Virus record (IMG/VR): IMGVR_UViG_3300024272_001997
Origin: a virus
Lineage: Duplodnaviria; Heunggongvirae; Uroviricota; Caudoviricetes
Length of the DNA stretch: 64,000 nt
Direction: 5' to 3' (one strand)
The position numbers and the translations under genes are program-made. Positions 22,568-64,000 of the stretch are shown here, piece by piece. The stretch's first letter is position 1. Each line of letters opens with the position of its first letter. The notes beneath the pieces are model-generated. The model was not told where the DNA came from and searched no databases. It was given only the letters and a program-made list of their open reading frames with translations.

Positions 22568-23620
22568 ATGTTGAAATTAGATTATACTTTAGAATCTCCA
22601 GAAGAGAGAAGAGAATTGGTTGAAAAAATTCTAGCTGAAACCCCTAATCCCTCAGAGGCGTATCTAGAAACTTTAGCTGATTATCTAGTTCTCTGTATGG
22701 AGAAACAAGAGAAAAAGGAGCGCAAACTATTAACTGATAACCGTATGGCTACAGTCAATAAGCGAGAAACTTCTTATGAAGGTCTTGTTTCCCAGCTAGA
22801 GAATGGCGAAGACGGCATTTATAATATGATAACTAATAATAAGAATACGATTTTCCAGCCAAAAGTAATGATAACTAAACAAGATGTAGAAGAAATACCC
22901 GGTATGTAGCAATTGCGCGACGCCATCAAAATGTGGGAAACAAAATTAAAGAGTGCCTCCGGGCGAGAAGCATTTATTATTAAGAGTACAATTATTGAAT
23001 TGCGAAAAGATCAATATGTTTTGAAGAACGCTTATCGTAAACCAATTGTACCAACTAAAATCACTCGTTCAAGACACGATATTCCTTTAGATGATGATTT
23101 CTGGTTTGATGACGAAGGCTATATTGTTCCAGAGGGTGTTTCTTTATGTAATCCAAAAGTAGTCTCAGCAATTCTTTGTAACTACTCCTTATGTAAACAA
23201 GAAAGTTGGGGAGAGTTTGAAAAAGATTTATGGTACTTGATGGATGACTTTGACAGAGTTGCGGATGCTGCTTTGAAAAATTATCCATTGTATGAACGAA
23301 TTGTTGAGTATAAAATTGATGGATTACAAAATATTGATATTCAAGAAAAAATCCAAATGGAGTTTGGGATCAAGCATAGTTTGGAATATATCTCAAGTTT
23401 ATGGCGTAATAAAATTCCAAAGATCATTGCGTCCGAGGCGGAAGATAGACTCTTAAATTGGTACTTCATGAATGAAATGAAGGGCAAATACAAAAAGTGC
23501 AGTCGTTGCGGGCAAGTCAAATTAGCTCACAATAAATACTTTAGTAAAAATAAGACAAGCCGAGATGGTTTTTATAGCATTTGCAAATGCTGTAGAAATG
23601 CGAAGGCCAAAAGCGTGTAA
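22568..23620 (+). CDS. hypothetical protein (350 aa) with C-terminal Cys4 zinc finger; one in-frame TAG at 22907-22909
   Basis: Track ORFs 22568..22909 and 22913..23620 are in the same frame, separated only by TAG; ends CSRCGQ...CKCCRN. Confidence 0.55.
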
Positions 23621-23664
23621 TTCCTCGCTGCTATTTTCATATTTTGTAAAGGAGGAATTTATAT

Positions 23665-24864
23665 ATGGCCCAAGAATCTTATTACTGTGAAAAATGTAAT
23701 AGAACAATGGCGGCCGACCAGTTCTACGGTACTAATAATTTAGAAAAATATCCTGATGGTAAATTGCGCATTTGTAAGAAATGTATGACAATGCACGTAG
23801 ACAATTTCAATCCGGATACTTATTTATGGATTTTACAAGAATGCGATGTTCCATATATTCCAGAAGAATGGAATAAATTATTGGCATCATATGGTAAAGA
23901 CCGCAGTAAACTGACTGGTCTGTCAATTATTGGTAGATATCTATCAAAAATGAAATTGAAGCAATTCCGAGATTATCGCTGGGAACACACCGAGCATCTT
24001 CAAGAAGTTGCGAATAAGAAAATTGAAGAGACGATGAAGCGTCAAGGATATGACGCAGTTGAAATCGCTCAAGCTGTCGCTCAGGCGACTGTCCCCGTCC
24101 CGCAGGGCATCATCGAACAACCAAAGTATGAAGAACCTAATCCATTCTTGGCATCTGGTGAAGAAGATTATTTTTCAGAGCAAAATGGTGGTCAAGATGA
24201 CTTTGTTGATGATTTGACTGAAGAGGATAAAACCTATTTGCGTTTGAAATGGGGAAAAACTTATAAACCCGAAGAATGGGTTCGATTAGAACAGCTATAT
24301 GAAGAAATGATGGCATCATATGATATTCAAGGTGCCGGACACATCGATACACTAAAATTGGTATGTAAGACATCTCTAAAGGCGAATCAATTAATCGACA
24401 TTGGCGATATTGAAGGCTTCCAAAAGATGAGCAAAGTTTATGATAGTTTGATGAAGTCTGGTAAGTTCACCGCACAACAGAATAAAGCTGAAAGTGGTGA
24501 CTTCGTTGATTCAATTGGCGAACTAATTGAAATGTGCGAAAAACAAGGATATATTGAAAGATATTATATTGAATCTCCAAAAGATAGAGTTGATATGACA
24601 ATTGCGGATATGCAGAGATATACTAAAACTCTGGTTGAAGAAGAAACCAATTTGTCAATCATGGTTGAAAAGGCTCTACGTGATATTGAGAAAGAAGATA
24701 AGGCTGAAGCTGAAAATACTGAAGATACAATTATCGATGATATTGATTTGAGTCTTGAGGATTTGGAAAAGACCTTGAAAGATCAAGATTATGTGGATTT
24801 CCAAGACTTCTTAGATGAAGAAGCTGAAGCTGACTCTGATTACTTGAATCGAGGTAGACGGTAA
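23665..24864 (+). CDS. hypothetical protein (399 aa), N-terminal zinc ribbon, acidic C-terminus; possible small terminase or DNA-packaging accessory
   Basis: Track ORF, no TAG; sits immediately upstream of terL with ATG overlapping TAA (TAATG). Confidence 0.55.
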   Translation: MAQESYYCEKCNRTMAADQFYGTNNLEKYPDGKLRICKKCMTMHVDNFNPDTYLWILQECDVPYIPEEWNKLLASYGKDRSKLTGLSIIGRYLSKMKLKQFRDYRWEHTEHLQEVANKKIEETMKRQGYDAVEIAQAVAQATVPVPQGIIEQPKYEEPNPFLASGEEDYFSEQNGGQDDFVDDLTEEDKTYLRLKWGKTYKPEEWVRLEQLYEEMMASYDIQGAGHIDTLKLVCKTSLKANQLIDIGDIEGFQKMSKVYDSLMKSGKFTAQQNKAESGDFVDSIGELIEMCEKQGYIERYYIESPKDRVDMTIADMQRYTKTLVEEETNLSIMVEKALRDIEKEDKAEAENTEDTIIDDIDLSLEDLEKTLKDQDYVDFQDFLDEEAEADSDYLNRGRR

Positions 24865-26603
24865 TGGCTTTACAAGATTTACTTGATTTATCAACATCCC
24901 GGAGAAAGATTGGTCTTTCTCCGGAACGTGTTGAGGCTGTTATGCCTACAATACGAAAGTACATAGCCTTTTGGAGAGAATATCCTGATTTATTCGTTGA
25001 CTTTATGGTACGTGGAACTAGTACCGAAGTAAAAGATGGAGAATTCTGTTTTTATTTCTATCAAAGAGTTTTCCTTCGTTGCGTTATGAGATATTAGTAT
25101 GTGTATGCGGTTTTTCCTCGTGCATATTCTAAATCTTTCTTGACTGTTATGGCATTGATGTGCCGTTGTATTTTATATCCCAATGCTCACTTGTTTGTCA
25201 CTTCTGGTGGTAAGGAGCAGGGTGCTTCTATTCTACAAAGTAAAGTAGAAGAAATTTGTAAATTGATTCCCAGCTTTGAAAGAGAAATTGACTGGGGACG
25301 AGGTAAGACTTTAACTGGTAAAGATAAAGTCCGATATGTATTTAAGAATGGTTCTGTTCTGGATAACCTTGCGGCCCGTGAATCTACGCGTGGTCAGCGT
25401 CGTCATGGCGGCGTAATGGAGGAATGTGTTGGTATTGATGACCAAATCCTTCGCGAAGTTATTATCCCTGTTATGGCTATCTCTCGTCGTGCGAAAGATG
25501 GTACTACTAATGAAAAAGAACCTTTGAATAAATCTCAGATTTATATTACAACTGCTGGATATAAAGGAACTTATCCATATGATAGATTGATTGGTTTCTT
25601 GGTTCGTATGGTCACTCAGCCCGATCGCTGTATTGTGCTTGGTGGTACTTGGAGAACGCCAGTGGCAATGGGATTACAGAGTAAAACATTCATTACCGAC
25701 CAGAAGAATGAAGGTACTTATAATGAAGCCTCTTTCGAGCGTGAGTATGAGTCTAAGTGGTCTGGTACTGTTGAAGATGCATTCTTCAATGGAGAACATT
25801 TTACTCGTAATAGAAAATTATTACAACCTGAATATGAACATTCCGGAAGGTCTGCGGCCGGCGCTTATTATGTGCTATCAGTCGACGTAGGTCGTAAGGG
25901 ATGTGATTCTGTTGTTTGTGTATTCAAGGTGACGCCGCAGGCGCAAGGCCCTGCTATCAAGTCTTTGGTAAATATTTATACAATGGCTGATGAACACTTT
26001 GAAGATCAAGCAATTAAGCTGAAAAAACTGTTCTATAAGTATAAAGCTAGAACTCTCGTAATCGACGGTAATGGTGTTGGTTTGGGTCTAATTGATTATA
26101 TGATTAAATCTTAGAATGATGAAAATGGAGACTTCTATCCTGACTTTGGCGTTCAAAACGACGATGAAGGTTATTATAAAAAGTATAGAACAGCTAATAC
26201 TGAATATGATGCTATGTATATTATCAAGGCAAATGCGCCAATCAATACAGAGTGTCACGCAAACGCACAAAGCCAACTTGCGGCCGGTAAGGTAAAATTC
26301 TTGATTGATGAAAGAACAGCAAGAGAAAAATTACTGGGAACCGCAAAAGGTTAGAAAATGAAGCCTGAGGAAAGGGCAGAATACCTTCAACCATTTACCC
26401 TAACTTCCATATTGAAAGAGGAAATGATGAATTTGCGTGAAGAAAATGAAGGCATAAATATCATTTTGAAACAAGCAAATCGTGGAATTAGGAAGGATAA
26501 GTTTTCTGCGTTTGAATATGGTTTGTATTATATAAAACAAGAAGAAGATAAAAAGAAGAAGAAAAAGAGATTTAACGCTGCTGATTGGGCGTTTTATAAT
26601 TAA
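24864..26603 (+). CDS. terL: terminase large subunit (about 579 aa) with 3 in-frame TAG codons (25098, 26112, 26352)
   Basis: Three same-frame track ORFs joined by TAG; N-terminal ATPase-like region (VFPRAYSKSF) and C-terminal RNaseH-like nuclease (YYVLSVDVGRKG...LVIDGNGVG). Confidence 0.7.
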
Positions 26604-26614: not shown

Positions 26615-26971
26615 ATGAGAGCATCTCGCGGTGAGATTAAGATTGAAGAAATCTTAAAAGAAGCTGAGCTTACTTTTAAGATGGAATATATCTTCCCTGA
26701 CTTAAAGAGCCCCAATGGTCGCCCTTTAAGATTTGATTTTGTCGTTTTTGATGATGATGGTAAAATTGATTTTATTATTGAATATCAAGGAAAACAGCAC
26801 TATGAACCAAGTGCGAAGTTCGGTGGTAAAAAAGGATTTTATCAACAGCAATACAATGATAATCAAAAGCGACGCTTTTGTGCTTTACATGATTTTCGTT
26901 TAATTGAAATACCATATACAGATGAAAACTTGATCTCTTATGACTATATCATGAAATTAGCAGGATATTAA
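26615..26971 (+). CDS. putative PD-(D/E)xK-like (DUF559/Vsr-like) endonuclease, 118 aa, TAG-free
   Basis: Track ORF; RFDFVVFDDDGKIDFIIEYQGKQHY resembles REase-like core; between terL and portal, a common homing-endonuclease site. Confidence 0.45.
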   Translation: MRASRGEIKIEEILKEAELTFKMEYIFPDLKSPNGRPLRFDFVVFDDDGKIDFIIEYQGKQHYEPSAKFGGKKGFYQQQYNDNQKRRFCALHDFRLIEIPYTDENLISYDYIMKLAGY

Positions 26972-26985: not shown

Positions 26986-28584
26986 TTGGATAAGTTAACT
27001 AGACAAGAAGAAATTCGTGCCAAAGGTTTTGACATGGGTGGAACTACCTATGGTAAAATTAAAATTGGAACTAAAACACTTGAAGATGCCGTTTTGAATT
27101 TAGGTTCAATTCAAAAGGAAACTAGAAACATCATCAATAAAGGCGTTATTTATCGTGCGCTTGCGGATAATGATGTTGAGAAGTTAAGAGAGATTTCTAA
27201 TTACTTCTATAAGACCAGCGGTATCTATCAAAGAGTATGTAATTATTTCGCTACTATGTATCGTTATGATTGGTATGTTGTTCCAGAAGTATACGATGAA
27301 AGTATCAAAGAAGAAAAGATTGTTGGAGATTTCCATAAGGTCTTGAACTTCTTAGATAATTCATATGTCAAAAAAGTTTGCGGTGATATGGCTCTTGGCG
27401 TTATCAAGAATGGCGCTTATTATGGATATATCGTTCCCACCTCAAAAGGAATTATTATTCAAGAGTTGCCTGTAAATTATTGCCGTTCTCGTTTTAGTTT
27501 GAATAATTTACCAACTGTTGAGTTCAATATGAAGTTTTTTGATGTTATGTTCCCAGATACTGGATACAGAATGAAAGTATTGAATTTGTTCCCAGAAGAG
27601 TTCAAGAAGGGATATGCTGCTTACAAGAGTGGTAAGTTACTTCCTGAAAGTCCATGGGATAGAGATAGTGGTTGGTATTTGTTGGACCCAGAGAAAACCG
27701 TGAAATTTAGTTTTAGTAATGGTGGATTCGGCGGTGTCGATTTACCATTATTTATCAATGCGATTCCTCTTATTTTGGATTTGGATGCGGCTCAGGATTT
27801 GGATCGTAGAAAGCAAATGCAAAAGTTATTGAAAATTGTAGTTCAGAAACTCCCATTAGATAAAAATGGTGATTTGATTTTTGACGTCGATGAAGCAAGA
27901 GATATTCATAATAATGCTGTTTAGATGTTGAAGCGTGCGGTTGGTGTTGACGTATTGACTACTTTCGCTGATATTGAAAGTATTGATATGTCTGATAAGA
28001 ATACTACTACTACTCAAGATGACTTGATGAAAGTTGAGCGTAGTGTATATAATGCTTTTGGTGTTCCGCAAAGTTTATTTAACTCTGATAGTAATTTAGC
28101 AATGAATTTATCTGTGCTAAATGATGAAGGTGCGGTCCGCACCTTGTTGCTACAATTTGGTGTTTTCTTTGATAGACTAACACAGAATTTTGGTGCGAAT
28201 AAAAAGAAATACAATTTTAGATTCTATATGCTTGAGACTACTCAGTATAACTACAAAGAGTTGTCTAAGATGTATAAAGAATGTGTTCAGTTAGGATATT
28301 CTAAGATGTTGCCTCAAATTGCTTTAGGCCATTCTCAGAGTGCTATCTTGAATACTGCTTACTTTGAAAATGAAGTTTTACATTTGAGTGAAGTTATGAT
28401 TCCTCCGCTGATGTCTTCTACTATGAATATGCAAGACTTAAAGGGCAATTCTAATCAAACTCAAACTAACAAAACTCAAACTAAATCAGGAGGATAGTCT
28501 TCTGAGAAGTCTGCGGGCCGACCGGAGAAACCAGACAATCAAAAGAGCGATAAGACTATCCAAAATAAAGAATCTATGAGCTAA
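26986..28584 (+). CDS. portal protein candidate (about 532 aa), TTG start, 2 in-frame TAGs (27922, 28495)
   Basis: AAGGAGGTGGAGTT-TTG; two same-frame track ORFs joined by TAG; position after terL. Confidence 0.55.
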
Positions 28585-28595: not shown

Positions 28596-30122
28596 ATGCA
28601 TACAAGTATTAAGTTAGATACACCTGTTGAGTTTATCAACATTACTCCTCTCAATCCTTTGATTTCTAAATGTCAGATTAAGGTGTGCTACGTAAGCGAT
28701 GAACCAAATCGTAACCGTAGTATCATCACCAAAGAAGTTGCAAAGCAAATGGCTAATTCATTGCCAGGATGCCCTATCGTTGGTTTTTATAATGAAGATA
28801 AGGGCGACTTTGAGGAGCACAATCGTATCATTGATATTTCCAATGGAAAGTTCGAGATCAAGGATACTACTCGCCCATACGGTTTCGTTGATTTGAGTGC
28901 GAAAGTTTGGTTCCAAAAGTTCTTGGATGATGGAATGACTGAGCGAGAGTATATGATGACTGAGGGCTGGTTATGGACCGGCCAATATCCAGAGTGCCGC
29001 AGAATCCTGGCACATGGAAATAATCAATCCATGGAATTGGATGAAGGTACATTAGATGCTCATTGGTCAAAAGATGGTAATGGAGATCCCAAATTCTTTA
29101 TTATCAATGAAGCAATTATTTCAAAACTTTGTACTCTTGGTGAAAGTAATGAACCCTGCTTCGAGGGTGCCAACATTACTGCACCTACCATTCAATTCGC
29201 TTTTGAAGATGGCTTTAAAGAGCAACTATTCTCTATGATGAACGAATTGAAAGAATATTTGAATAAAGGAGGAGAAAAAGTGTTTACTAGATATGCTGTT
29301 GAAATCGGTGACGCTTTATGGACCGCTCTTTATAGTCGCGTTGAAGATGCTTACGTTATTGAGAGCGTATGTGAAGATGGTGAGCAGAAGTTCGCTGTTG
29401 TTACTGCCGATGATAAGTATTACCGTTTAGATTTCTCCATCGCTGAAGACGGCGTAATTGAGTTCGCTGCTGAACCTGTTTTGATGGAAGAGTATACTCC
29501 ATCTGAAGAGCCTCAGTTTGATCCTGTCGCTGTTGATGAATATGCCAAGTCTAAGAAGGCCGCCAAGAAGGATGAAGATGATGACGAGCCTGAAAAGAAA
29601 GATGGCGAAGGCGAGGAAGAAAAGTGCCCTAAGTGCGGCAAGCCTAAGTCTGAGTGTGAATGCGAAGACGAAGATGACGACGATAAAAAGAAAAAGGGCA
29701 AGAAAGAAAAATACAATCTTGATGAAATTCAAGAATATGTAGAGCTAAGCTCCAAATATTCTGACTTGGAGACTAATTATAATGCTGCTCAGGAAAAAAT
29801 CGCTGACCTAGAAGCTCAGATTGGTGAGTTGACTGCATTTAAGAAGTCCATTGAAAAGGCAGAAAAAGAGAAAATGATTGACAGTTTCTATATGCTGTCT
29901 GATGATGACAAGAAGGATGTTATTGAGAACATCGATACTTATTCTCTGGATGATATTGAAGCTAAGCTATCAATTATTTGTGTTCGCAACAAGGTCAGTT
30001 TCAACCTTGATGATGATAAGAACAATGGCGTAACCACCTATAATTTGGATGGTGGAGTTCCTGCGGACGAGACTGTTCCCGCTTGGATTAAAGCCTTGCG
30101 TTCTGTTGCGAGTGAAATGTAA
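28596..30122 (+). CDS. scaffolding / prohead-maturation protein candidate (508 aa), TAG-free
   Basis: Track ORF; acidic low-complexity linker, CPKCGKPKSECEC motif and C-terminal coiled coil. Confidence 0.5.
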   Translation: MHTSIKLDTPVEFINITPLNPLISKCQIKVCYVSDEPNRNRSIITKEVAKQMANSLPGCPIVGFYNEDKGDFEEHNRIIDISNGKFEIKDTTRPYGFVDLSAKVWFQKFLDDGMTEREYMMTEGWLWTGQYPECRRILAHGNNQSMELDEGTLDAHWSKDGNGDPKFFIINEAIISKLCTLGESNEPCFEGANITAPTIQFAFEDGFKEQLFSMMNELKEYLNKGGEKVFTRYAVEIGDALWTALYSRVEDAYVIESVCEDGEQKFAVVTADDKYYRLDFSIAEDGVIEFAAEPVLMEEYTPSEEPQFDPVAVDEYAKSKKAAKKDEDDDEPEKKDGEGEEEKCPKCGKPKSECECEDEDDDDKKKKGKKEKYNLDEIQEYVELSSKYSDLETNYNAAQEKIADLEAQIGELTAFKKSIEKAEKEKMIDSFYMLSDDDKKDVIENIDTYSLDDIEAKLSIICVRNKVSFNLDDDKNNGVTTYNLDGGVPADETVPAWIKALRSVASEM

Positions 30123-30149
30123 TAAAAACTAATAAGGAGGAAAATAGAA

Positions 30150-30968
30150 ATGCTTAGAGAATTATTGAAGAAGCATATTAAGTCTCAGGCAGAGTTCGTA
30201 GAAGTCGGCTACGGTCAGGTTGAACCCAACCACCTAAGCGCTCAGAGAACTGCTCAGATTTATGCTCAGTTGCCTGCTGATCCTGCTATTAAGGTTCTAG
30301 AGCAGGGACAGTTTGTTAAGTATGACTATGCAGCTGGCCTTGTAAACTTTACTGGTGCAGGCGAGTGGATGCTTGTTTATAACGAAATCAAGTTGTATCG
30401 TGAGCATCAGTTAGATTGCGAGTTCGCAATGTTAAAAGACAATTATCAGGCTCGTGTTTATAGCCCATTGGATCACACCAAGCCTGAGGAGATGTACGGT
30501 CCTACCCGTTTCATGAACGGCGTAAGAGAGCGTTATAATCCTACTACCGGCGCTTTCGAGCAGTTGGATGAAATCAAGAATCCTGAGACTGGCGAAGTTG
30601 CTGATTACAGCGTTATTTCTAGCGTACATGACTACTATGAGATGAACGACATCAACAATCCTGAAATCGAGGGAGACGCTCGTAAGAGATTGTTCATGAA
30701 GTTGCGTGATTACCAGGAGAAGATGATGCCCGCAGGTACTACTATGGTTCCTCGTGTATTCAAGACTAATGTTGGTGACCACTACACTACCAACCTAATC
30801 CATGCTGAACCCGGCTCTTTGAAGGAGTTCGATCTATTGGCTCCTCGTGCTGCCGATGGTATCTTAGAGCCTGTTGCTGATGCTTCTGGCGATATGGTAT
30901 GGCAGGTTGCTAAGGTTTACACTATGCCTGACCACCAGCCTGGTGTCAAGGTTATTAGAATTAAGTAA
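30150..30968 (+). CDS. structural protein (272 aa), TAG-free
   Basis: Track ORF; GGAGG RBS; highly expressed-type codon usage. Confidence 0.55.
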   Translation: MLRELLKKHIKSQAEFVEVGYGQVEPNHLSAQRTAQIYAQLPADPAIKVLEQGQFVKYDYAAGLVNFTGAGEWMLVYNEIKLYREHQLDCEFAMLKDNYQARVYSPLDHTKPEEMYGPTRFMNGVRERYNPTTGAFEQLDEIKNPETGEVADYSVISSVHDYYEMNDINNPEIEGDARKRLFMKLRDYQEKMMPAGTTMVPRVFKTNVGDHYTTNLIHAEPGSLKEFDLLAPRAADGILEPVADASGDMVWQVAKVYTMPDHQPGVKVIRIK

Positions 30969-30987
30969 TTGAAAGGAGAGAAGTATA

Positions 30988-32127
30988 ATGGCTTTAGATA
31001 AGAAAAATTTAGTACAGCTGGCAAAGACTGTAGCAAAAGCTGACCCTTCTGCTCCTGTTTCTTACAGCTTCAATGGCGAAAGTTTTAACTATGAGACTCT
31101 AAATGAGACTCTACGCCGTGAATTCAATGAGATTGCTGGTACTTACGCTTTGTATCGTGAGAACAAGCACCTGATCTTCGCAGTTATCGAAGAGACTATG
31201 GACGAGGTTCTGCCTAAGAAGGTTGAGCAGGCTTATATGCAGTTTGCTGAGACCAAGCAGTTCGCTCAGGGCGACAAGCCTATTTTCCGTCGTAAGAGAG
31301 ACGTTCGTCAGCGCGCTAAGCAGTTCGTAACTCGCGTTGGTCTAGCAGGTATTTACGAAGTCTTCAAGCTAGGTCCTAGTGAAGAAGAGAGCTTCGAAGT
31401 CCGCACTAGCGCCATCGGTGGAGCTGCTCAGATCGGCTTCGAAGAGTTCTTGGATGGACGTGTTGACTTCGCTGAAGTAACTAATATCGTCATGGAAGGC
31501 ATGAACGAGTTGATCATGAAGGAAGTTGGTCATGCACTAGCTGCTTCTATCAATCAGTTGCCTCCTGCTAATATCGCTGTTGTTAATGGTTTCGACGAGC
31601 AGGAATTCGATCGCTTGTTGGTTATCGCTTCTGCTTACGGTGAGCCTACCATTTACTGCACTTACGAGTTTGCCGTAAAGATGGTTCCTACCGAGGGTTG
31701 GAGATACACTGAGTCCATGAAGCAGCAGTTGTGGGATACTGGTCACTTGGCTACTTACAAGGGACGTAAGGTTGTTATTCTACCCCAGGGCTTAGAGGAT
31801 GAGACCAATATGCGCAAGGTAATCAATCCTGGTTACTGCTACATCATCCCCGCTGGTGCTGACACCAAGCCTGTGAAGATTGCTTTCGAGGGTAATACCA
31901 TTGTTGACGAGTTCAATAACTATGACCGTTCTCGTGATATTCACGTCTATAAGAAGGTCGGCGTTCTAGCTATGTTGGCTAACAACATCTGCGCTTACGC
32001 TGATGCTAGCTTGTTGGGTCAGATGGATATTGCTGGCTCTGTTTGGGATAGCACTGCTTATGTAAGTGAAGTTAAGGCTTATGCTGAGTCCACTTACAAT
32101 CCTAACTACGAGTTCCCAAAGGTTTAA
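30988..32127 (+). CDS. major capsid protein candidate (379 aa), TAG-free
   Basis: Track ORF after scaffold; GGAGAGAAGTATA-ATG; followed by the strongest terminator in the window. Confidence 0.6.
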   Translation: MALDKKNLVQLAKTVAKADPSAPVSYSFNGESFNYETLNETLRREFNEIAGTYALYRENKHLIFAVIEETMDEVLPKKVEQAYMQFAETKQFAQGDKPIFRRKRDVRQRAKQFVTRVGLAGIYEVFKLGPSEEESFEVRTSAIGGAAQIGFEEFLDGRVDFAEVTNIVMEGMNELIMKEVGHALAASINQLPPANIAVVNGFDEQEFDRLLVIASAYGEPTIYCTYEFAVKMVPTEGWRYTESMKQQLWDTGHLATYKGRKVVILPQGLEDETNMRKVINPGYCYIIPAGADTKPVKIAFEGNTIVDEFNNYDRSRDIHVYKKVGVLAMLANNICAYADASLLGQMDIAGSVWDSTAYVSEVKAYAESTYNPNYEFPKV

Positions 32128-32152
32128 TTTAATATAAAATAATTAGTTTAGA

Positions 32153-32190
32153 GGGGGAAGAGGGGATATCCCCACTTCCCCCTATTTTTT
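32153..32190 (+). terminator. rho-independent terminator after capsid gene
   Basis: GGGGGAAGaggggatatccccaCTTCCCCC followed by TATTTTTT. Confidence 0.75.
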
Positions 32191-32215
32191 ATTATGAGAA
32201 AAAGGAGATAATACA

Positions 32216-32800
32216 ATGGCTATTTTTAATGTAAAGAACAGAGGTGCTAGTTGGGTCACCTATAAGATTCCAGAAGACGGAATCCGCAGAAGTTTTGCTC
32301 CCGGCGAAGTAAAGAAAGTTAGCGATGTTGAATTGGAAAAGCTAACTTATCAGCCTGGTGGTATGGTTATTCTTTCCCAGTTCCTTCAGATTCAAGACGA
32401 AGTTGCTCTAAGAAATTTGAATATTCGTACTGAGCCTGAGTATCATATGAGCGAAGCAGATGTTGCTGCTTTGATTAGAACTGGTTCTTTAGATGCTTTC
32501 TTAGATGCTCTTGATTTTGCTCCAGCTGGAGTTATTGATTTGATCAAGAAGTTGAGCTTGGAAATTCCTCTAATGGATTTGGGTAAGAGAAAGGCTTTGA
32601 AAGATAAGACTGGTCTTGATGTCGATGCTGCTCTAAAGAACAGAGAAGCTGAGAAGGAAGACGAGAATGGTGGAAATACCATCCTAAAGCAGACTGAGCG
32701 TAGAGTGAAGACTGAGGAAGTCGCTCCTGGTCGTCGTACCACTACTCCTAAGTACAATATTATTAAGACAGAGCCAGCAGCTGATAAAGCTACTGAATAA
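32216..32800 (+). CDS. structural protein (194 aa), TAG-free
   Basis: Track ORF; AAAAAGGAGATAATACA-ATG. Confidence 0.55.
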   Translation: MAIFNVKNRGASWVTYKIPEDGIRRSFAPGEVKKVSDVELEKLTYQPGGMVILSQFLQIQDEVALRNLNIRTEPEYHMSEADVAALIRTGSLDAFLDALDFAPAGVIDLIKKLSLEIPLMDLGKRKALKDKTGLDVDAALKNREAEKEDENGGNTILKQTERRVKTEEVAPGRRTTTPKYNIIKTEPAADKATE

Positions 32801-34726: not shown

Positions 34727-34752
34727 GAACTAAGAGTAAAAGGAGTGTTTAT

Positions 34753-35343: not shown

Positions 35344-35345
35344 TT

Positions 35346-37147: not shown

Positions 37148-37170
37148 TTTACAATTAAATAACTTTTTAG

Positions 37171-54374: not shown

Positions 54375-54399
54375 AAAGGAGAAAAAGGAGATATACGTT

Positions 54400-54765
54400 A
54401 TGAAAATGACAAATTTAGAAATTTATAATACTGCAAGTCACCTTATGGAGGCTTTCAGTGATGGTAATCAAAAATTACCTGTTAAATTGAATTTCTTCTT
54501 ACAGAAGAATAAAAAGACTTTATTGGGTTTAGCTCAAGAAATTGAAGAGGCTCGTTTGAATGTTGCTAAAGAACTCGGCGTTCAAAATGAAAATGGTGGA
54601 TATACCGTCGAACCTGAAAATGTTGATAAGGCCCAAGCTGAATTAACTCAGTTGTTTAATATTGAGCAAGAGGTTGACATTGCTATGATTAGTTATGATG
54701 ATCTCGATCCTGGTATGACAATGACTGCTGCCCAGATGGAAGCATTATTGTTCATGATTAAGTAA
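54400..54765 (+). CDS. hypothetical tail-associated protein (121 aa), TAG-free
   Basis: Track ORF; AAAAGGAGATATACGTT-ATG. Confidence 0.5.
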   Translation: MKMTNLEIYNTASHLMEAFSDGNQKLPVKLNFFLQKNKKTLLGLAQEIEEARLNVAKELGVQNENGGYTVEPENVDKAQAELTQLFNIEQEVDIAMISYDDLDPGMTMTAAQMEALLFMIK

Positions 54766-54769
54766 TTAT

Positions 54770-54806
54770 ATGGGCTACTGGAAATTTTCCAGTAGCCCAA
54801 TTTTTT
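54770..54806 (+). terminator. rho-independent terminator
   Basis: GGGCTACTGGAAAtttTCCAGTAGCCC followed by AATTTTTT. Confidence 0.7.
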
Positions 54807-54827
54807 AGAGAGAAAGGAGTTAGAGTT

Positions 54828-57674
54828 ATGAAATTACATCCACCTGTTATAGATGGTAAATTACCTGCTTTTGCGGGAACCTCAATGAATATTCCTTTTA
54901 TGTTGAATCGTGCAGTTGCTCTATCTGATTTGAATGAAGCCACTCCACTAAAATTGAAAATTAAAACTGTAAAAACCAACAGAGAGATTGGTACTTTTAG
55001 TGGTCAATATATATACAATAAAGCTACGGGTAATTATCATGCTAACTTTATTTTATCTGAAAAGAAAAATGAAATAAAATTTGGTACTTTTTATAAAGTT
55101 CAAATTGCTTTTGTTTCTAAGGATAATACTGTGGGTTATTATTCTACCGTAGGAATTATTAAATGTACTACATACCCCATCGTAAAAGTTTAGGGACAAA
55201 GTGATAATTTATCTAATAGTTATGAATATGTTGGTGTTTATCAACAGCCAAGCGAAGGTAATAAGTATGATACAACAGAAAAAGCTTACTCTTATTGTTT
55301 TGAATTAAGGGACATTGATGGAAATATTGTTTCTACAAGCGGAACTCAAATTCATAATAGCTCTTATGATACGGAGCCAGAAGAGATGCATGACCACTGG
55401 GTTTTGCGAAAGAATTTGAAAGAAGGAGTTCCTTATTATCTTACTTATAAAGTAACTACTACCAATGGATTAGAATGTGAAAGTCAAAGTTATCCAATTG
55501 TTACTCAAGAAAGCGTAGACTCTTCTCTTCAAGAGAAATGTGATTTAATTGCCACTTCTAATTTTGAAGATGGTTTTATTCGTTTAAGTTTACGTCCAAA
55601 AGTGAAGCATGGTGTTATTGATGGTAGCTTTGTTTTGTCTCGTTCTTCTAGCGAAGATAATTTTGATAGCTGGAATGAGATTTACCGATTCTCTTATAAA
55701 AATCTTCATGTATATGGAGATATTGGAGAATCTGCGGACTTATTAACAACTCACCCAGATTTTTGGGATAAGAATGATTTAATCCTTTGGGAAGATTTTA
55801 CTGTGCAACAAGGTGTTCAATATGTTTATTCTATTCAAGCATTCAATGCTCAAGGATTATTTTCTAATCGAATGATAAATCATAAATGGACACTAGCTTA
55901 TCGTGACAATGATATGAATGCCGCAGGCGACTATGAAGAGCCTGATGGTTATGATGAATACCGCAGAGGATATTATTTTGACAGCACTCCAGAAACTATT
56001 ACAGTTGATTTTGAAGATATGTTCTTATTTGATGGCTCTCGTCAATTAAAGATTAGATTTAATCCAAAGGTTACTTCTTTTAAGTCTACTGTTTTGGAAT
56101 CTAAAATTGATACTTTAGGCGGTAAATATCCATTCGTATTTAGAAATGGTAATGTAGAATATAAAGAATTCCCTGTATCTGGATTATTATCTCTCATTAG
56201 TGATCCAAATGAGTTCTTCTTAAAAGGTATTTAGACTGAGAAGTTATTATATCGTTCTTAGGCTAATGGCGATGAAATTATCGGTCCAGGAGATACTCAT
56301 GTAACTATGGATAATTTACGCAGAGAACGCGAATTTAAAATGGAGGCTTTGTCTTGGCTAACAAATGGCAAGCCTAAGTTGTTCCGCTCTCCTAGCGAGG
56401 GTAATTTTATTGTTCGTATTATGAATGTATCCATGTCTCCACTTGATGTAGTGGGACGTATGCTTCATAGCTTTAGCGGAACTGCTTACGAGATTGCGGA
56501 ATGCACTTTTGATAATCTAAATACATATGGATTTATTTCTGCTCCTGATAGAGATAATCGCGATCTGAAAATCGGTTAGATTAGACTTGCGGACGCCGCA
56601 GATCCCAAAAAAGATGTACAAGGATTTAGTGCAGAAGGTAATAAAATTACCACTCCCGCAATTTATCGAGCTAGCTTTACTGGTGTCGCTCCTGGAACAA
56701 TTTTTGCATTAAACTTTGAAGATGGATATGGTAATGTTGAAATTGAAATTGGCTATACGGGTACTTATTATGTACAAGTACAGGATAAACCAATTACTTC
56801 AATTACTTTATTAAAATCCGCAGATATTGATAAATTAGATTATACTAAGAAACCTGAGACCGATGATTGGAGAGACGCATATTTAACTTTCTGTTATTAT
56901 GATAGTAATCCTACTGATAATTTTAGTAAGATTACAAGCATCGCAGTACAAGACGAATTTAGACAATTTATTGGCACTGGCTTTAATGCTAATCTTATTT
57001 CTTTTTTGGAAGATATTCGTCGATAGACTGGTAGATTCCATTATTTGCGAATTAGCGAAAGACCAATTCGTCAGATTTATAAAGATAGTAACGGAGTTTG
57101 GTTCTTTAATCCACAGTTCACCGATCGTATATATGATACTGAATGGGATGCTAGTGTAATTTATCAAGTCGGAAATTCAGGAACTTATTATAGCGGTAAA
57201 CCTCGTTCTCCCATGGGTAAGCCTGATTATCGTCTAAAGATTGTAAATGGTGATGGCGAGTATGAGGATGAAATCAAATTCGATGGTAGAAAATCACCTG
57301 GCATCGAATTAGATAAATGGTGGCCTACTAATTCTTATAATAATGGTCGTATCAATAAATCTTCTGGTACTCACAGTAGAATTGATGCGATTACTGGTGT
57401 TGATAAAATTGATGGAATTTATATTGGCACTGGTTTAATGGTTGAGATGGCTTATCGTGTTAAATTCTTAGGATATGATGTTGAGACTAGTAGTAGTGCA
57501 GTTAGAAATGCTAAAGCAACTTGGCAGGCTGCAATTGAGAATTGGGAAGCTGTCACTGGTGATGCAGAATCTACCAGAGAACAAATTGATGCTAGTTTAC
57601 AACAAATTGAATCTGCTTATGCAAAATATATAGAAGCACTTGAATATGCTTTGGCACAGGAGGTTGAAGATTAA
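54828..57674 (+). CDS. tail/baseplate protein (about 948 aa) with about 6 in-frame TAGs
   Basis: Track ORFs 54828, 55386, 56307, 57045 share frame 0; ends TAA 57672-57674. Confidence 0.5.
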
Positions 57675-60571
57675 TGGTTTATGATAAAAATTTTTTATTA
57701 GAGTTAGATAGAGATAAAAACAAAACCATTTATGCTCGTATCACAGCTTTGCGCTTTGATGAATCTCCTATTGAATTTATTGAAGGTCGTGTAACGCAGG
57801 GTTCCATCAATATCGATGGAACCTCTGCCATCAGACGCTCTTGTTCTTTAACCATGGTCGCCGCAGATTTTGATTATCGAAATTATTATTGGGGACTGAA
57901 TACTAAATTCAAGTTAGAAATTGGATTGGAAAATTATATCAATCCTGCCTACCCAAAAGTATGCTGGTTTGATTAGGGTGTCTTTTTAATTACTCAATTT
58001 AATACAAGTCGTAATGCCTCAAGTTTTAATATTTCTGTATCTGGTAAAGATAAGATGTGTTAGCTAAATGGTGAAATTGGTGGTAATTTTGAATCTTCTG
58101 TTGATTTCGGTCAAATTGAAGAACAAAATCCTGATGGCTCTTGGAAAATTACTAAACTTCCAATTCATCGTATTATTCGCGAAATGATTCACCAATACGC
58201 CGGAGAGCCTTTTCACAATATTATTATCAATGATTTAGAAGAATATGGTTTAGAGCTTTTAGAGTATCAATACGATGTTCCAATGTTTTTATACAGACAT
58301 ATTGATTCTCCAATTTATACAAACGCTTTATTAAAAGGTGAAGTCGAATGTAAGGTAGACAGAGTTAATCCAGAAACAAAAGAAGTAGAGCGAGTATCCA
58401 TTCAAGTAAAAGATTTAACTAATACAGAATTAGAAATGTTAGTTGATCCATTGACTGGAACACCTAATCCCTCTGAAGTATGGATTTGGGACAGTGAAGA
58501 AAAGCAAGATATTCCTTATTATTTTGCTAAGATTGAAACTAATTAGACTGCAGGTTATCGAACTACTGAGTTAACTTACCCAGGTGATTTGATTGCGGCC
58601 GCAGGTGAAACAGTTACTTCTGTTTTAGATAAGATCGTAAATATGCTTGGTGAATTCGAGTATTTTTATGATTTATAGGGACAATTCATTTTCTAGAAAA
58701 AGCGTTCTTTTGTCAATACTTTATGGTCTCCATTGGTTGATAGTAGTTCCGATGATGAGGATGGTTCTTATGATGAACAATATGTAGAAAGCTTGGCGAT
58801 TGCTTCCTCTCAAAGTTATGTATTCCATGAAGGAGAGCTAATTACTGCTTTCAATAATAATCCTAATTTGACTAATATGAAAAATGATTATTCAATTTGG
58901 GGTACTCGTGCTTCCGTTCAAAATACTGAAATTCCAATTCATATGCGCTATGCAATTGATAAGAAACCAACCTTCTACCGCACATATGACGGAAGTAAAT
59001 TCTTTACAACTGAGAAAAAAACTGATGAAGATTTATATAATGAAATCTTTAGCGAGCTATATGAAGAATTTACTAAAAAGCCAAATCCAAATGGATTACC
59101 GGAAGATTGGTGGGATATTATGGATTGGGCTGAAAGATATAAAATGCTAAAAGGTTTTTATCCTCCTGGACGTATTGGCCAATACTGTTCTGAAGCAGTA
59201 AGTAAAAGAATTGATTTAAATTCTTATTTCCCTGCTCCTCCTGAGGATTAGAATTTGAATGATAGTAGAGGTAAATGGAATCATTATCGTGACATTTATA
59301 TCTTTGATGTAGAAAGTGATGGAACTCTTGGATATTATGGACATTATAATGGATGTACTCATTATTATGAATATTTCTTAGAAAGAGCGTTAGAAGGATT
59401 AGGAACTTCTTACATTTATAAGCCAGAAATTCCCGAATCTGAAGGCGGCGATGTAAGTAATATTGTTGTTGATATTATGAAAAATCGTGTTTATAATCAA
59501 GATTGGCGAGAAATTATTTATCAAATGGCTTTAGACTATTATCAGCATGGTCAAGAAGAAGATTTTGAGCAACGGATTATTGAAAATAATTATCCTTATT
59601 ATCCTACTGGATTGACTGGATATGAATCTTATTATATTGATTTACAAGGCTTTTGGAGACAGTTATATTATCCCATTGAAAGAACTGTGCAAGAATACCA
59701 AGATGAAAAAGCAAAATTAATGGAAGAGAAAGGGTTCATTGGAAATTTTATTTATACTCCTGAATATATTGAAGAGAACAAAGAAGCATTATCTAACCTA
59801 GATAAGAAATTTGATTATTTCTTCTATGTAAGAAAAGAAAAGGACGAAGAAGGCGTAGTGCATGAGCTAGATCGATTTGGACCTGAGCAAGAAGAAGATG
59901 AAACAGATGACGCTTATGCGGAAAGAATAGACGCATTGTTATTACAATTCCAAGATGCTTTATACGTCACTTTAACTGAAATTGAAGAGCTTATTGCGAA
60001 GTGCGATACAAAAATTGAAGCAGTTGAAGAAGAAAGCTCTTATTATTATACCAAAGATGAACTTTATCCTCATTGGCGTAAAGATGTTTATGAATCTCCT
60101 TAGAGCTTGAATTTCTGGTTTGACTTTTTAGATACAGATGGAGAACTGGCACAATTCAATGTGTAGAATGTCGGTCGTAGGCCAAAAGTTGTAAATGATT
60201 CAAGTGTAAAATCCATTTATTTTAGAGATACACCGGACATTATTTTTAGAACTGCTGATGAGGGAGAAATAATGACTGGTTATAGATACATTTAGGCTCC
60301 AATGATTGAGACCATGTTTAAGATTAGTACTCAAGGCAAATCCGCAAAAGATAAGTTAGATGAACTAATTTATACTCATGGATATTGCATTGAAAATGCT
60401 ACAATTACAACTATTCCAATCTATTATTTGGAACCTAATATTCGTGTGCATTTATATGACAACGAAACCAATCTATGCGGAGATTATATTATTAGCAAAT
60501 ATACTATTCCATTAGCATATAATGGAACAATGAGTATTACTGCTACTAAAGCCGCAGAAAATATTGTTTAA
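57674..60571 (+). CDS. tail/baseplate protein (about 965 aa) with about 9 in-frame TAGs
   Basis: ATGA overlap with previous stop; track ORFs 57674, 58184, 58733, 59255, 60302 share frame 2. Confidence 0.5.
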
Positions 60572-60587
60572 AAGGAGGACGGACGAA

Positions 60588-60956
60588 TTGAAAGCTATTA
60601 GACAATTTAGATATTATGGATCTGATTTGATTAATAATGAATTTGCCAAAATAAATAATTATCCAAATGATCCTTCTTTCCCAGAAAGATTGATCGGTGG
60701 TAATATTTTTAATGAATATAGCGCAATCACAAAGCTTGGTATTCAAGGTCGTCCAGGTACAATGTTCTATTTGAATGATAGTAATTACCCAATCGTCATT
60801 GGCGAGACAGGTATTTATGAGATTGATTTAGAAGGTTATGGACAGATTTTCCGTATCAAATTTGACGGTCCTTCATTGAAGTGGTACGATGAAGATGGCA
60901 AAGGCGACCGTCTTCTAATTGACATTGTATTTGAAGGGTCAGGTGGAAGCGCATGA
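60588..60956 (+). CDS. hypothetical protein (122 aa, TTG start), TAG-free
   Basis: AAGGAGG 8 nt upstream of TTG at 60588; ends TGA. Confidence 0.45.
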   Translation: MKAIRQFRYYGSDLINNEFAKINNYPNDPSFPERLIGGNIFNEYSAITKLGIQGRPGTMFYLNDSNYPIVIGETGIYEIDLEGYGQIFRIKFDGPSLKWYDEDGKGDRLLIDIVFEGSGGSA

Positions 60957-63109
60957 GTTTTTATGGTAGCATATATTACCAATTAGTTGATGCTTTCAAT
61001 CGACTATGGTTTAGTAACTAGGGAAAAGACAGCATTATTTTCCCCGGTGAAGATAAATTAGTAAATCCAAATCCTGCTGAGGGTGTTCCAGAAGATACTT
61101 TTGAATATCATTCTCCTGGACGCCAAGGTGTTATCGACTTAAAGTCTGGTAACAGATGGATTGTTTTTACTTAGAATGAAGAAGATAAATCTTTCAAGAT
61201 TTGGCATAGAGAAGCAGATGCCGAGAGTAATGTTCCTGGTAATGGTTTTTATCATGTTCCAAATATGTATTTGGTTGTTTAGCAAGATGGAGAAAAAATC
61301 GAATAGGTTATTGATAGATGTATTCAAGAAACTTCTGACAGAATTGCAGAAGAGGGCGGAACTTTTACTTTAGAAGAGGGCTGTAGAGTAGTTGTTGAAA
61401 TTCCAAGCAAAGAAGATAATGTTGATCCTTCTCATGCAATCTATAAATATACTATTGATGGTGAATGGGAAGAGGAATTAGAAGCAACTCAAGGAATGGT
61501 AACCATTCTAAATCCCGATGATTTCTTTGTAACTACTGAATCTTATGCTGTAGATGGAGCAGGACATATGATTCCTGGTACTCGTCATTTATACAAGATG
61601 CCAAAGTCTGATGTTCAAGAAGAAATTGATGCTCTAAAGGCTCGTATGACGAAGAATGAAGAGCACGATGGAGAGCAAGACGACGATATTGATCTATTGG
61701 AAGAATATGTCGGTGATTGGAATCTATACAGAGGCGCAACCAATGATAAAGGATTTAATTATTGGATGCCGGGTGTCTCTGATGCCATTGGCGATATGTG
61801 TGAATTAATCGCAGGTCACCAAAATACTTTTAATGAAGATGGAAGCGTCAAAGATGTTTGGTCTGACTGGGAAGACCATCGTGATGTTAATATTGCTCGT
61901 GTTATCGGTAACTTAACACTATTAAGAGAAAGCTTAAAATCTTTTGATAATGCTCATTTTAGAGTTGATGATACTAAAATGAGTGATATTAGCTTGATTG
62001 ATGTTATTTTGTATATTAAAGATAATTTAGTTGCGACAAATACAACAACTCTTACTGGTCATAAAGGAAGACTTGATAACTTAACTGACGATATTAATAG
62101 ATTAACTTCAGATACTTTAGCTTTGACAAAACGTGCAGATGACTTAGAAGCAAAAGATATTGAAATTGAAGCTGATATTGATGCAATTAACGATCCTGCT
62201 ACTGGCATTTTGATTACTGCTAAAAATTATACTGATAGTTTAGCCAATGGCGCTGTAAAAGCAAATACTGATGCCATTGCCGCGATTAATGATCCTACTA
62301 CAGGTATTTTAGCAAATGCTAAGTCTTATACTGATAATTTAGCAAATGGAGCAGTAAAAGATAATACTAATGCTATTACCGCAATTAATGATAGTGAAAC
62401 TGGTATTTTAGCAAAGGCTAATAAGTATACAGATGAATTAGCCAATGGTGCAGTAACAGATAATGCTAATGCTATTATTGCAATTAATGATGGCGAAACT
62501 GGTATTTTAAAATCTGCAAATAATTACACTGATGATGAAATTGATAAATTAGATTATACTGACAGTGCTGCCGATGGACAATATGTCTATTCTGTAAATG
62601 AAACTGATGGTATTATTGCAGTTGAGCATAAAGCTCTTCCTACTTATACTTTAACTTCTGGTAGTACCAATGGTACAGTCGCTTTCAATGGATCTGATGT
62701 AATTGTAAAAGGATTAGGTACTGCTGCTTATTCTAATACAGACGCTTTTGATGCGGCTGGTGCGGCCGCAACTGCCAAGAACGAGGCAATTGCTGCAGCT
62801 AAAACCGAAACTGAAAATCAGATATAGGCATTAACTGAAGGCGCTATTGCAACTGCCAAGAGTGAAGCAATTGCTGAAGCCAAAACTGAAACTGAAAACC
62901 AAGTAAAAGCATTGGCTGAAGGTGCTGTTGCAGACAACAGTGCAGCAATTGAAGATTTAGAATTATTGCTTCAAAATTACAATGAACTGGTTGCGAAGGT
63001 AGCTGAGCTAGAAGGCAGAATTGCTGCCCTAGAACCCGCACCCGAAGAACCAGATCCAGAAGAACCAGATCCCACTCCAGGAGATGAAGGTTCTGAACCC
63101 ACTACATAA
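60953..63109 (+). CDS. tail fibre protein (about 718 aa) with about 5 in-frame TAGs and four tandem repeats of about 32 aa
   Basis: ATG overlaps previous TGA; repeats AINDxxTGILxxAxxYTDxLANGAVxxNxxAI at 62190-62520; C-terminal coiled-coil and Pro/Glu-rich tail. Confidence 0.55.
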
Positions 63110-63172
63110 TTTCTTTCTATTGAGAAATTAATATATATAAGTAAATAATTTTTAGGAAGGAGAGAGATTATA

Positions 63173-64000
63173 TTGGCAAGATACGTTAAGTTTATGCGAG
63201 GTACTCCTACACAGTACGCCGCTTTGGTTGAAAAAGATATTGATACCCTGTATTTTATTGCTGAACCTACTGCTAGTGAAGGTTGCTTGTACTTAGGTAA
63301 TAAGTTAATTGCTGGTAATGGCGAAAGCAATAGCGGAGATCTATCTGAATTACTAAGTTTAAACGACTTATCTGATGTCATTGTAAATTCCTTAGACTTA
63401 TCTGATGCTTCCTTTCTAATCTACAATCAATCTCAAGGTGCTTGGGTAAATTGTAGTAAAGAAGCATTAGTATTTGTTGGCTCTTCTTCTTTGTCCGACG
63501 GTAAGGCTGGCCTAGTGCCAGCCCCCGCAAAGGGCGAAGAAAATATGTTCTTGCGTGCGGACGGCACTTGGGCCGTTCCTGAAGGCGCAGGAGCTGCTTC
63601 TAATGCTGTTGTTTATCAAGTAACCGCAGAAGCAGATGAGAGCAAGGAGGCCGCAATCGTTCGCATCGTAAATGGTGCTGAATTGCATAAAAATGATGTA
63701 GCAATCGTAAGAGTCTTAATTGCTAATGATATGTATGAGCATACTGCTTATGTATATGACGGTACAAATTGGGCCGCCATGGATGGCAATTATAACGCTG
63801 AAAATGTTTACTTCAAAAGCGATTTTGTATTTACTGAAAATGTAGGTACAGTAAAAATTCCAGAGTCTGGTAATATTGAAGTTCAGGCCGCAGGTTTGAA
63901 TGTTGCTGAGTTCTTTAATAAGTTGTTCTCTGAGGTAAAAGATCCAACAATTACCGATGTAGAGTTCACTGTCTCCTGGGATGGAACTAAGACTTCTTAT
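63173..64000 (+). CDS. tail fibre / receptor-binding protein, partial (TTG start), runs off window end
   Basis: AGGAAGGAGAGAGATTATA-TTG; MARYVKFMRGTPTQYAALVEKDIDTLYFI N-terminus; open to position 64000. Confidence 0.5.
   Translation, partial: MARYVKFMRGTPTQYAALVEKDIDTLYFIAEPTASEGCLYLGNKLIAGNGESNSGDLSELLSLNDLSDVIVNSLDLSDASFLIYNQSQGAWVNCSKEALVFVGSSSLSDGKAGLVPAPAKGEENMFLRADGTWAVPEGAGAASNAVVYQVTAEADESKEAAIVRIVNGAELHKNDVAIVRVLIANDMYEHTAYVYDGTNWAAMDGNYNAENVYFKSDFVFTENVGTVKIPESGNIEVQAAGLNVAEFFNKLFSEVKDPTITDVEFTVSWDGTKTSY

Follow-up and report, generated by a model that had tools for sequence, protein, structure and literature searches.

The stretch of DNA analysed here, 64,000 nucleotides of the Caudoviricetes record IMGVR_UViG_3300024272_001997 (the window), carries a leftward early region of small genes, a short divergent promoter region and, from position 22568 to its end at 64000, a rightward module of packaging, head and tail genes in which the amber codon TAG is a sense codon. 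Read on the plus strand with TAA and TGA as the sole stops, this module resolves into 24 complete genes and one that is cut by the end of the window. It is highly probable that the window represents about one third of a ~183-kb SPbeta-like siphophage of gut metagenomes in which UAG is decoded as glutamine (NCBI genetic code 15). The genes and gene blocks of the rightward module are as follows.

22568 to 23620, plus strand: first rightward gene, 350 amino acids, with a TAG at 22907 and a C-terminal four-cysteine motif; PHROG 5767.
23665 to 24864, plus strand: YonG-like gene, TAG-free here; PF27269 (YonG_N) is matched on the identical contig; PHROG 3314.
24864 to 26603, plus strand: large terminase gene terL of the SPbeta YonF type, with TAGs at 25095, 26112 and 26352; PHROG 2.
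26615 to 26971, plus strand: HNH or homing endonuclease gene, TAG-free and free-standing between terL and the portal gene; PHROG 9084 and 559.
27034 to 28584, plus strand: portal gene, with TAGs at 27922 and 28495; PHROG 2739 is matched (E = 2.5e-83) over residues 42-514 in one stretch.
28596 to 32800, plus strand: capsid-block genes of 508, 272, 379 and 194 amino acids with zero TAG, including putative scaffold and major capsid genes (by position only).
33385 to 36071, plus strand: four head-completion or neck genes with 2, 3, 3 and 6 TAGs, which the PHROG matches span.
36095 to 37147, plus strand: virion structural gene (PHROG 2729, 'virion structural protein'), a putative major tail protein, TAG-free, with CAA:CAG of 1:9.
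37232 to 38557, plus strand: gene of 441 amino acids with nine in-frame TAGs and a GC content of 0.31.
39284 to 48673, plus strand: tape measure gene, 3129 amino acids, with 36 TAGs, from 39434 (the first) to 47903 (the last), and TAA as its stop.
48870 to 63109, plus strand: tail, baseplate and fibre genes of 1834, 121, 948, 965, 64 and 718 amino acids with 5, 0, 5, 9, 0 and 5 TAGs, respectively.

Open reading frames of at least 100 codons covered 77.9% of the plus strand of 22568-64000 under the standard code, and 98.8% when TAG was treated as sense. When TGA or TAA was freed instead, coverage was only 79.6% and 83.3%, respectively. A total of 89 in-frame TAGs were spread over 13 of the 24 complete genes, and the genes themselves ended in TAA (22 of 24) or TGA (2 of 24). 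The 9390-nt frame of the tape measure gene contains 36 TAGs and neither TAA nor TGA, where ~185 would be expected from its composition (log10 P ~ -83). PHROG profiles for the terminase, the portal and several virion proteins matched in single stretches across TAG positions, and the product of 35346-36071, a gene with six TAGs, matched over positions 1-240 of a 247-position profile. An earlier, sequence-only reading of this DNA had reported that the large rightward genes hold one frame through TAG, with at least 35 TAGs in a single tape measure frame, three in terL, two in the portal gene and 5-9 in each tail gene, and that the late genes it had checked end in TAA or TGA. These counts were reproduced, the large tail genes having 5, 5, 9 and 5, with the use of TAA or TGA extending to all 24 complete genes, and the recoding observation is thus confirmed, far beyond chance.

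Exact look-ups of window proteins identified a contig of the same phage, ENA ERZ27248436 k141_1895590 (183,267 bp), which is 99.99% identical to the window across 10.5 kb. A leftward walk was made along this contig by exact-sequence look-ups, and ~105 of the 183 kb of the phage were examined in total. In addition, 80 related loci were fetched from IMG/VR via terL, and the codons aligned to the window TAGs were read in the 13 genes covered. Both halves of the window were compared by megablast with the phage collection (OQ749652 among its records) without a match, and an exact 40-mer search in IMG/VR gave none either; a protein from locus L083, used as query for the left flank, retrieved no relative among viral contigs and only short ones among metagenome contigs.

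Opposite the window TAGs, ~870 codons were read in the relatives, of which 267 were TAG, 262 encoded glutamine (233 CAA and 29 CAG) and 131 encoded lysine, with every other residue occurring at most 45 times. In the reverse direction, TAGs of the relatives faced glutamine in the window 1227 times, glutamate 174 times and lysine 145 times. Sixteen of the relatives have no sense TAG at all; among their residues opposite TAG, glutamine reached 35%, compared with 4.3% in the background (P = 1e-24). In tail genes of relatives that are 94-98% identical, the window TAG positions were occupied by TAG, CAG or CAA with few exceptions, and conserved positions such as codon 24 of 35346-36071 and codon 53 of 33680-34726 held TAG and glutamine codons only; codons 24 and 66 of 35346-36071 are TAG or glutamine in nearly all relatives. 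Tryptophan did not occur opposite TAG in the alignments of the relatives. The assignment to glutamine had been put forward earlier from the position of one TAG and its closeness to CAG, together with the suggestion to align homologues. In these alignments glutamine leads among the non-TAG residues in both directions, and TAG interchanges with CAG and CAA in near relatives. Glutamine is therefore a well-supported reading of TAG on the basis of homologue alignment.

No tRNA was detected in the window by ARAGORN, and no suppressor tRNA was found within 10 kb on either side of terL in 54 relatives. The phage carries its tRNA genes to the left of the window, on the leftward arm, in an array of 33 detected by ARAGORN and two more by Rfam. 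The last tRNA of this array has the anticodon CUA (L103:19877-19951, equivalent to L105:10358-10432, on contig k141_1895590) and scores 51.5 bits with the Rfam tRNA model. It lies ~27.7 kb left of window position 1 in the leftward transcription direction, and a promoter-like site of near-consensus sigma-A type (TTGACT-17-TATAAT) is present ~157 nt upstream of it. The scan for an amber suppressor tRNA that had been proposed along with the sequence-only reading thus finds the gene in the phage, outside the window. The phage also encodes tRNA-Gln(UUG) and tRNA-Gln(CUG). A derivation of tRNA(CUA) from these was considered and dropped, as none was clear; the likeness to tRNA-Trp is weak, and no conclusion was drawn from it.

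Left of 22568, our own gene calls and public recoding-aware calls on the identical contig agreed on ~50 genes. The features of this side that matter for the use of TAG are listed here.

189 to 22364, minus strand: early region of ~44 small genes with zero in-frame TAG, nearly every gene having its own consensus sigma-A type promoter.
3432 to 3569, plus strand: ribbon-helix-helix (RHH) gene, 45 amino acids, whose codon 29 is an in-frame TAG (3516-3518) located centrally in the RHH_1/DUF6290 domain.
8235 to 8603, minus strand: early gene ending in TAG, with a stem-loop and T-run terminator (8207-8236) directly after the TAG.
22212 to 22364, minus strand: first leftward gene, 50 amino acids, ending ...AAA CGA TAG TGA, a tandem stop in which an in-frame TGA directly follows the TAG.
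22365 to 22567, no strand: divergent promoter region with perfect 12/12 promoters at 22425-22397 (minus strand, for the 22212-22364 gene) and 22509-22537 (plus strand), which parts TAG-free leftward from recoded rightward genes.

No in-frame TAG was present in the 5049 codons of the leftward early genes, as against 89 in 13427 late codons (Fisher p = 2e-10), and the remaining two frames of the early region hold 74 TAGs. The public gene calls bear out this absence of in-frame TAG. The region has a GC content of 40-50% and prefers CAG to CAA (103:39). In all, ~35 kb of leftward genes, from the divergent promoter region to the tRNA array, are without in-frame TAG. Between 6500 and 22430 of the window, the minus strand carries 24 perfect TTGACA-N17-TGnTATAAT promoters and ~11 that match at 11 of 12 positions, about one per gene; promoter-like sites in the early region numbered 77 against 31.8 expected, while no such promoters were found above chance in the late module. 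Many of the early promoters are paired with intrinsic terminators.

The sequence-only reading had also held that the early genes use TAG as a stop, and that a boundary between two codes runs through the window. Its two examples do end in TAG, the gene at 8235-8603 directly before its terminator and the gene at 22212-22364 with an in-frame TGA that backs up the TAG at once. A public call of 184 amino acids reads through the TAG at 8235; this was treated as a caller artefact and rejected because the extension crosses two hairpins and the promoter of the next gene. As a general rule the claim fails, however, since only 2 of ~50 early genes end in TAG. In homologous late genes of relatives that do not recode TAG, TAG stops were found in 7 of 34 cases under the standard code (21%; loci L002, L044, L045, L074 and L075) and in 12 of 45 TGA-recoded cases. 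Measured against the 21% in the standard-code relatives, the 2 of 50 early TAG stops are therefore a depletion (P = 8e-4). The same holds among 35 distinct recoded relatives, where 6 of 310 leftward open reading frames end in TAG, and where open reading frame coverage of the late side rose from 0.65 to 0.93, but that of the early side only from 0.66 to 0.73, once TAG was treated as sense. TAG is almost never a terminator anywhere in the phage, and the early region, which reads alike under both codes, is more aptly called a TAG-free zone than a second code. What stands of the proposed boundary is a TAG-free block that meets a recoded block inside the window; to speak of two codes is an overstatement, as the early block barely uses TAG stops. 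Nucleotide similarity to most relatives begins at ~22475-22575.

The recoding had further been thought to be confined to the late module. This does not hold, as in-frame TAG is also present in the RHH gene and in four leftward non-structural genes that lie just outside the window. The translation of the RHH gene is MTVITVRLDDIEKQLLQQYAEDEDLSVS*IIRRLIKEFLDEKVRN, no other TAG left of 22568 is a genuine sense codon, and the full 45-residue product gives RHH_1 and DUF6290 Pfam matches on the identical public contig. The gene opens a rightward island (3432-5360, plus strand) within the leftward early region, in which it is followed by a DUF6291 gene, and repeated GTAATAC motifs with an operator-like look lie just upstream of it. 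The four leftward genes, situated in or beyond the tRNA array, have one TAG each and encode a GT2 glycosyltransferase, a PDDEXK_5 protein, a C1 peptidase and a protein of 181 amino acids; their GC content is 0.28-0.41. In the GT2 gene the TAG falls between the SIIIPVYN segment at the N terminus and the VIIVDD segment, both of one predicted GT2 domain.

The first gene of the rightward module (22568-23620) gives a single PHROG match over residues 32-345 that spans its TAG, and has its own consensus sigma-A promoter. At least one TAG is present in this gene in 53 of 54 recoded relatives, at positions that are not conserved. PHROG 5767 bears the label 'sigma factor', which was set aside, as neither Pfam, NCBIfam nor PDB supported it, whether searched by sequence or with a 13-homologue profile. 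Among 8,000 candidates scored, 6,768 homologues of this gene were found at E <= 1e-5, the best 120 all being at least 84% identical, which marks the phage lineage as very abundant in public metagenomes.

Within the late module, five genes (28596-32800 and 36095-37147) are set apart by the absence of TAG, for which P = 2e-5 at module-average usage. They have a GC content of 0.40-0.46 and CAG:CAA of 45:9 and resemble the early genes in this, whereas the TAG-bearing late genes have a GC content of ~0.26-0.38 and prefer CAA; the capsid-block genes taken alone show the same GC range of 0.40-0.46 and CAA:CAG of 8:36. The three genes at 30150-32800 have 0.03-0.10 TAG per 100 amino acids in 45-46 recoded relatives, compared with 0.8-3.6 in most other genes, and the gene at 28596-30122 is intermediate (0.47). 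In phAss-1, a recoded gut phage, the homologues of the TAG-free late genes, including that of 36095-37147, are unbroken in the table-11 annotation. The YonG-like gene, TAG-free in the window, carries TAGs in most relatives (mean 5.5). A strong terminator (37169-37198) follows the putative major tail protein gene. The capsid identity of 30988-32127 was also sought by structure; no PDB sequence match was obtained, a single-sequence AlphaFold model was unusable, with a predicted local distance difference test score (pLDDT) of 37.8, and the product is a putative capsid protein by gene order.

These observations match the switch model proposed by Borges et al. (10.1101/2021.08.26.457843). In the newly infected cell, host RNA polymerase and ribosomes would bring about the expression of the tRNA array and of the early genes, which are free of TAG. 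The tRNA(CUA) would then accumulate, be charged with glutamine by a host enzyme and outcompete release factor 1 (RF1) at UAG, and full-length products of the TAG-bearing genes would follow, namely the virion proteins, the RHH protein and the regulator-like first late protein. Genes of high output, that is, the early genes, the capsid block and the putative major tail protein gene, would shun TAG because suppression is presumably incomplete, and low-copy AT-rich genes may have gained TAG from CAG and CAA. The order of expression, the competition between tRNA(CUA) and RF1 and the avoidance by copy number are all inferred.

Several points weigh against the interpretation of this phage as one that decodes UAG as glutamine under a switch. 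The glutamine assignment is inferred from alignments only, and lysine is the second most frequent residue facing TAG. The tRNA(CUA) is unlike the phage's own tRNA-Gln genes and closest to tRNA-Met and tRNA-Trp (71-73% identity), so that its sequence does not tell with which amino acid it is charged. No gene for release factor 2 (RF2) or an aminoacyl-tRNA synthetase was seen in the ~105 of 183 kb examined. The promoter of the suppressor resembles a host promoter, from which suppression could begin early, and promoter-like motifs are the only basis for the proposed time at which the tRNA would be expressed. TAG density falls with GC at third codon positions (GC3; rho = -0.50, p = 0.014), and the pattern could therefore be partly compositional rather than regulatory. 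Finally, bins of metagenome-assembled genomes (MAGs) that hold related contigs disagree on the host, pointing to Acutalibacteraceae, Treponema or Mollicutes.

The in-frame TAGs might not be translated at all, the genes being pseudogenes, products of assembly or sequencing error, or split into separate polypeptides. Annotation with table 11 does break such genes up, as in the deposited phAss-1 record, and nothing else speaks for this; the frames are interrupted by TAG alone and never by TAA or TGA, TAGs are found in these very genes in 66 relatives whose assemblies are independent, all 21 tail-gene TAG positions tested are kept in near-identical contigs (99-99.99% where compared) from separate samples, and the phage encodes the cognate tRNA(CUA). 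We regard this explanation, for which there is next to no probability left, as already effectively refuted. That TAG encodes another amino acid, e.g. lysine, tryptophan or pyrrolysine, is improbable. Lysine takes second place opposite TAG overall (131 of ~870) and also in a second comparison (26 of 108), the D-arm and anticodon loop of tRNA(CUA) are tRNA-Trp-like, and ARAGORN labels it 'Pyl'; against this, conserved TAG sites hold nothing but TAG and glutamine codons, tryptophan is absent, the general tRNA model of Rfam scores tRNA(CUA) as an ordinary tRNA, and the gene calls over ~105 kb contain no pylS or pylBCD-like Pfam matches. Within the ~105 kb covered, pyrrolysine decoding, which would involve pylS, pylBCD and a Pyl-type tRNA, is matched in none of these. 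A host that itself reads UAG as sense, with a phage that follows the host code as code-4 and code-25 phages do, is more improbable still. Some relatives in the clade read TGA as tryptophan and were binned with Mollicutes-like MAGs, and code-following fits that branch. We know of no described bacterial lineage in which UAG is read as glutamine. Moreover, the phage has its own tRNA(CUA), and ~45 kb of its leftward genes, in the window and just to its left, avoid in-frame TAG entirely, while phages of recoded hosts use the reassigned codon in ~90% of genes (10.1101/2021.08.26.457843). Naming a host from the MAG bins was rejected, as the bins are inconsistent; the host group is probably Clostridia.

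A more serious competitor, which we consider possible but doubtful, is recoding without a temporal switch, in which the suppressor would work from the onset of infection and TAG would be distributed by composition and expression level only. AT-rich genes of low expression would drift from CAG and CAA to TAG, and GC-rich, highly expressed genes would be kept TAG-free by inefficient suppression. TAG-free genes are present inside the late module, and the absence of TAG is therefore not tied to timing; these genes share the CAG-rich usage of the early genes, and TAG density is negatively related to GC3. The depletion of TAG stops among the early genes is what read-through there would predict, the suppressor has a host-type promoter, and the leftward TAG-bearing genes are of low to moderate GC content (0.28-0.41). 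On the other hand, TAG is wholly missing from the early genes even though they are richer in CAG than the late genes (2.0% versus 0.9% of codons) and a single transition turns CAG into TAG. The TAG-free state also recurs in the non-homologous early regions of 35 relatives, some of them at a GC content of 0.36, and the first late gene carries TAG in nearly all recoded relatives without conservation of position. The two explanations, with and without a switch, are not mutually exclusive.

The switch model may be taken one step further, and here we are more speculative, considering the following rather unlikely. The suppressor tRNA could time a translational gate that controls regulators and not virion proteins only, the most abundant virion proteins being kept TAG-free so that their yield is independent of how well suppression works. 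The RHH gene and the four-cysteine gene, two small genes of DNA-binding type, the latter behind a perfect host-type promoter, both need read-through of UAG, and tRNA(CUA) is last in the array and apparently co-transcribed with a Y-RNA-like RNA. If this were true, recoding would form an integral part of the transcriptional cascade and would be adjusted to protein copy number.

By tblastn, terL is 45% identical to that of the SPbeta-like phages EF1, H1 and VRE9 of Enterococcus and E3 of Geobacillus, and 46% to that of phAss-1, which NCBI files under 'Caudoviricetes code 15 clade'. For phAss-1, TAG as glutamine, a tRNA-Sup(CTA), 36 tRNAs and a tape measure of 3149 amino acids have been described, the tape measures of its group being 3149-3209 amino acids long (PMC10607447); the wider monophyletic group has some members that are recoded and others that are not (PMC10607447). 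The phage described here shares with phAss-1 a human gut source, terL and the putative capsid protein (46% each), a tape measure in the range of ~3100-3200 amino acids, TAG as glutamine in virion genes, and 33-36 tRNAs including tRNA(CUA) on the leftward arm. It differs in the absence of a megablast-level DNA match, in size (~183 kb versus 136 kb) and in synteny, and has one tRNA(CUA) in the ~105 kb examined where three are reported for phAss-1. The proposed genus Phassvirus (phAss-1, ctckW2 and ct6IQ4) is delimited by at least ~80% genome nucleotide identity and by synteny with phAss-1; with no DNA-level similarity to phAss-1 and a terL identity of 46%, the phage is therefore another, larger member of the wider group and not a Phassvirus. 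Membership of that wider phAss-1/SPbeta-like group is borne out by homologous terL, portal and capsid genes, the giant tape measure and the large tRNA array.

With the standard-code SPbeta-like phages (Bacillus SPbeta YonF/YonG, Enterococcus EF1/H1/VRE9 and Geobacillus E3) the phage has in common the packaging and head module, YonG_N, the portal and virion proteins, and differs in its code. With the code-15 gut phages (crAss-like, Lak, Garnet, Amethyst and Topaz, among others; 10.1101/2021.08.26.457843) it shares TAG in structural and late genes, a suppressor tRNA, early genes that are compatible with the standard code, depleted TAG stops, low GC content and close relatives that are standard or TGA-recoded. 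Frames unbroken through TAG, the alignment to glutamine, the phage tRNA(CUA) and the late enrichment, with the RHH gene and the four leftward genes as exceptions, all identify it as a code-15 phage. Unlike those phages, it belongs to an SPbeta-like lineage, has a tape measure of 3129 amino acids, and showed no RF2 or synthetase in ~105 kb. In crAss-like phages, for which code 15 has been validated by metaproteomics (Peters et al., PMC9523058), the tail tube gene is preferentially recoded, whereas here the putative capsid genes and the tail structural gene are TAG-free. The block-wise dual coding described with Mgcod (10.1101/2022.06.29.495998) likewise combines a standard-readable block with an amber-reassigned block and a boundary that can be mapped; the present phage departs from that picture in that its 'standard' block barely uses TAG stops and lone TAG-bearing genes lie outside the recoded block, so that one code with a TAG-free zone describes it.

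Both the phenomenon and the phage group have been described before, and what is presented here is another recoded branch of the wider phAss-1 group, one that shows amber-to-glutamine recoding cleanly and at very high abundance in an SPbeta-like lineage of Firmicutes type. The clade-wide avoidance of TAG in putative major virion proteins and the presence of TAG in two regulator-like genes are refinements that may be worth specialist attention. Three codes (standard, TAG-recoded and TGA-recoded) occur within one terL clade at ~40-97% identity, with standard and TGA-recoded members even at 60-65%; with all three in one lineage, the clade lends itself well, as a natural series, to the study of how code changes originate and of what they regulate. 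TGA aligned to tryptophan, as in code 4, at loci L050, L055, L066, L072 and L076-L082, and the standard code was seen at the five loci named above, the terL of these loci being 40-65% identical to that of the window.

Annotation with table 11 shatters genes of this kind, and some PHROG families look like the resulting fragments. PHROG 15503 and 24618 (both 'unknown function') match the N- and C-terminal parts of the terminase separately, and are probably table-11 fragments of recoded terminases. At the terminase locus of the Enterococcus phages EF1 and EF5, an HNH homing endonuclease divides the terL match into three pieces. The lengths of the tail, baseplate and fibre genes are the same in the calls on public contigs.

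The surroundings of the suppressor tRNA hold further features. Directly upstream of tRNA(CUA) and behind the same promoter-like site, a match to the Y-RNA-like family YrlA (RF02553), with a permuted tRNA-like module, was found at L105:10237-10344; with 40.8 bits it stays below the 69 bits of the family's gathering threshold (E = 1e-7 when 500 nt were searched). Rfam found neither a theta nor an HDV-like ribozyme adjoining the suppressor. Inside the tRNA array, ~23 kb to the left of the window, L103:15195-15820 matches the ROOL RNA model (Rfam RF03087) over its full length (positions 1-574) with 323 bits. The suppressor tRNA is directly followed by a gene for a protein of 833 amino acids with a major-vault-protein shoulder domain (L105:10519-13020; GC 0.50, CAG:CAA 30:1), and ~10 kb beyond it, from L105:20123 onward, is a Thg1-like gene of the tRNA-His guanylyltransferase family.

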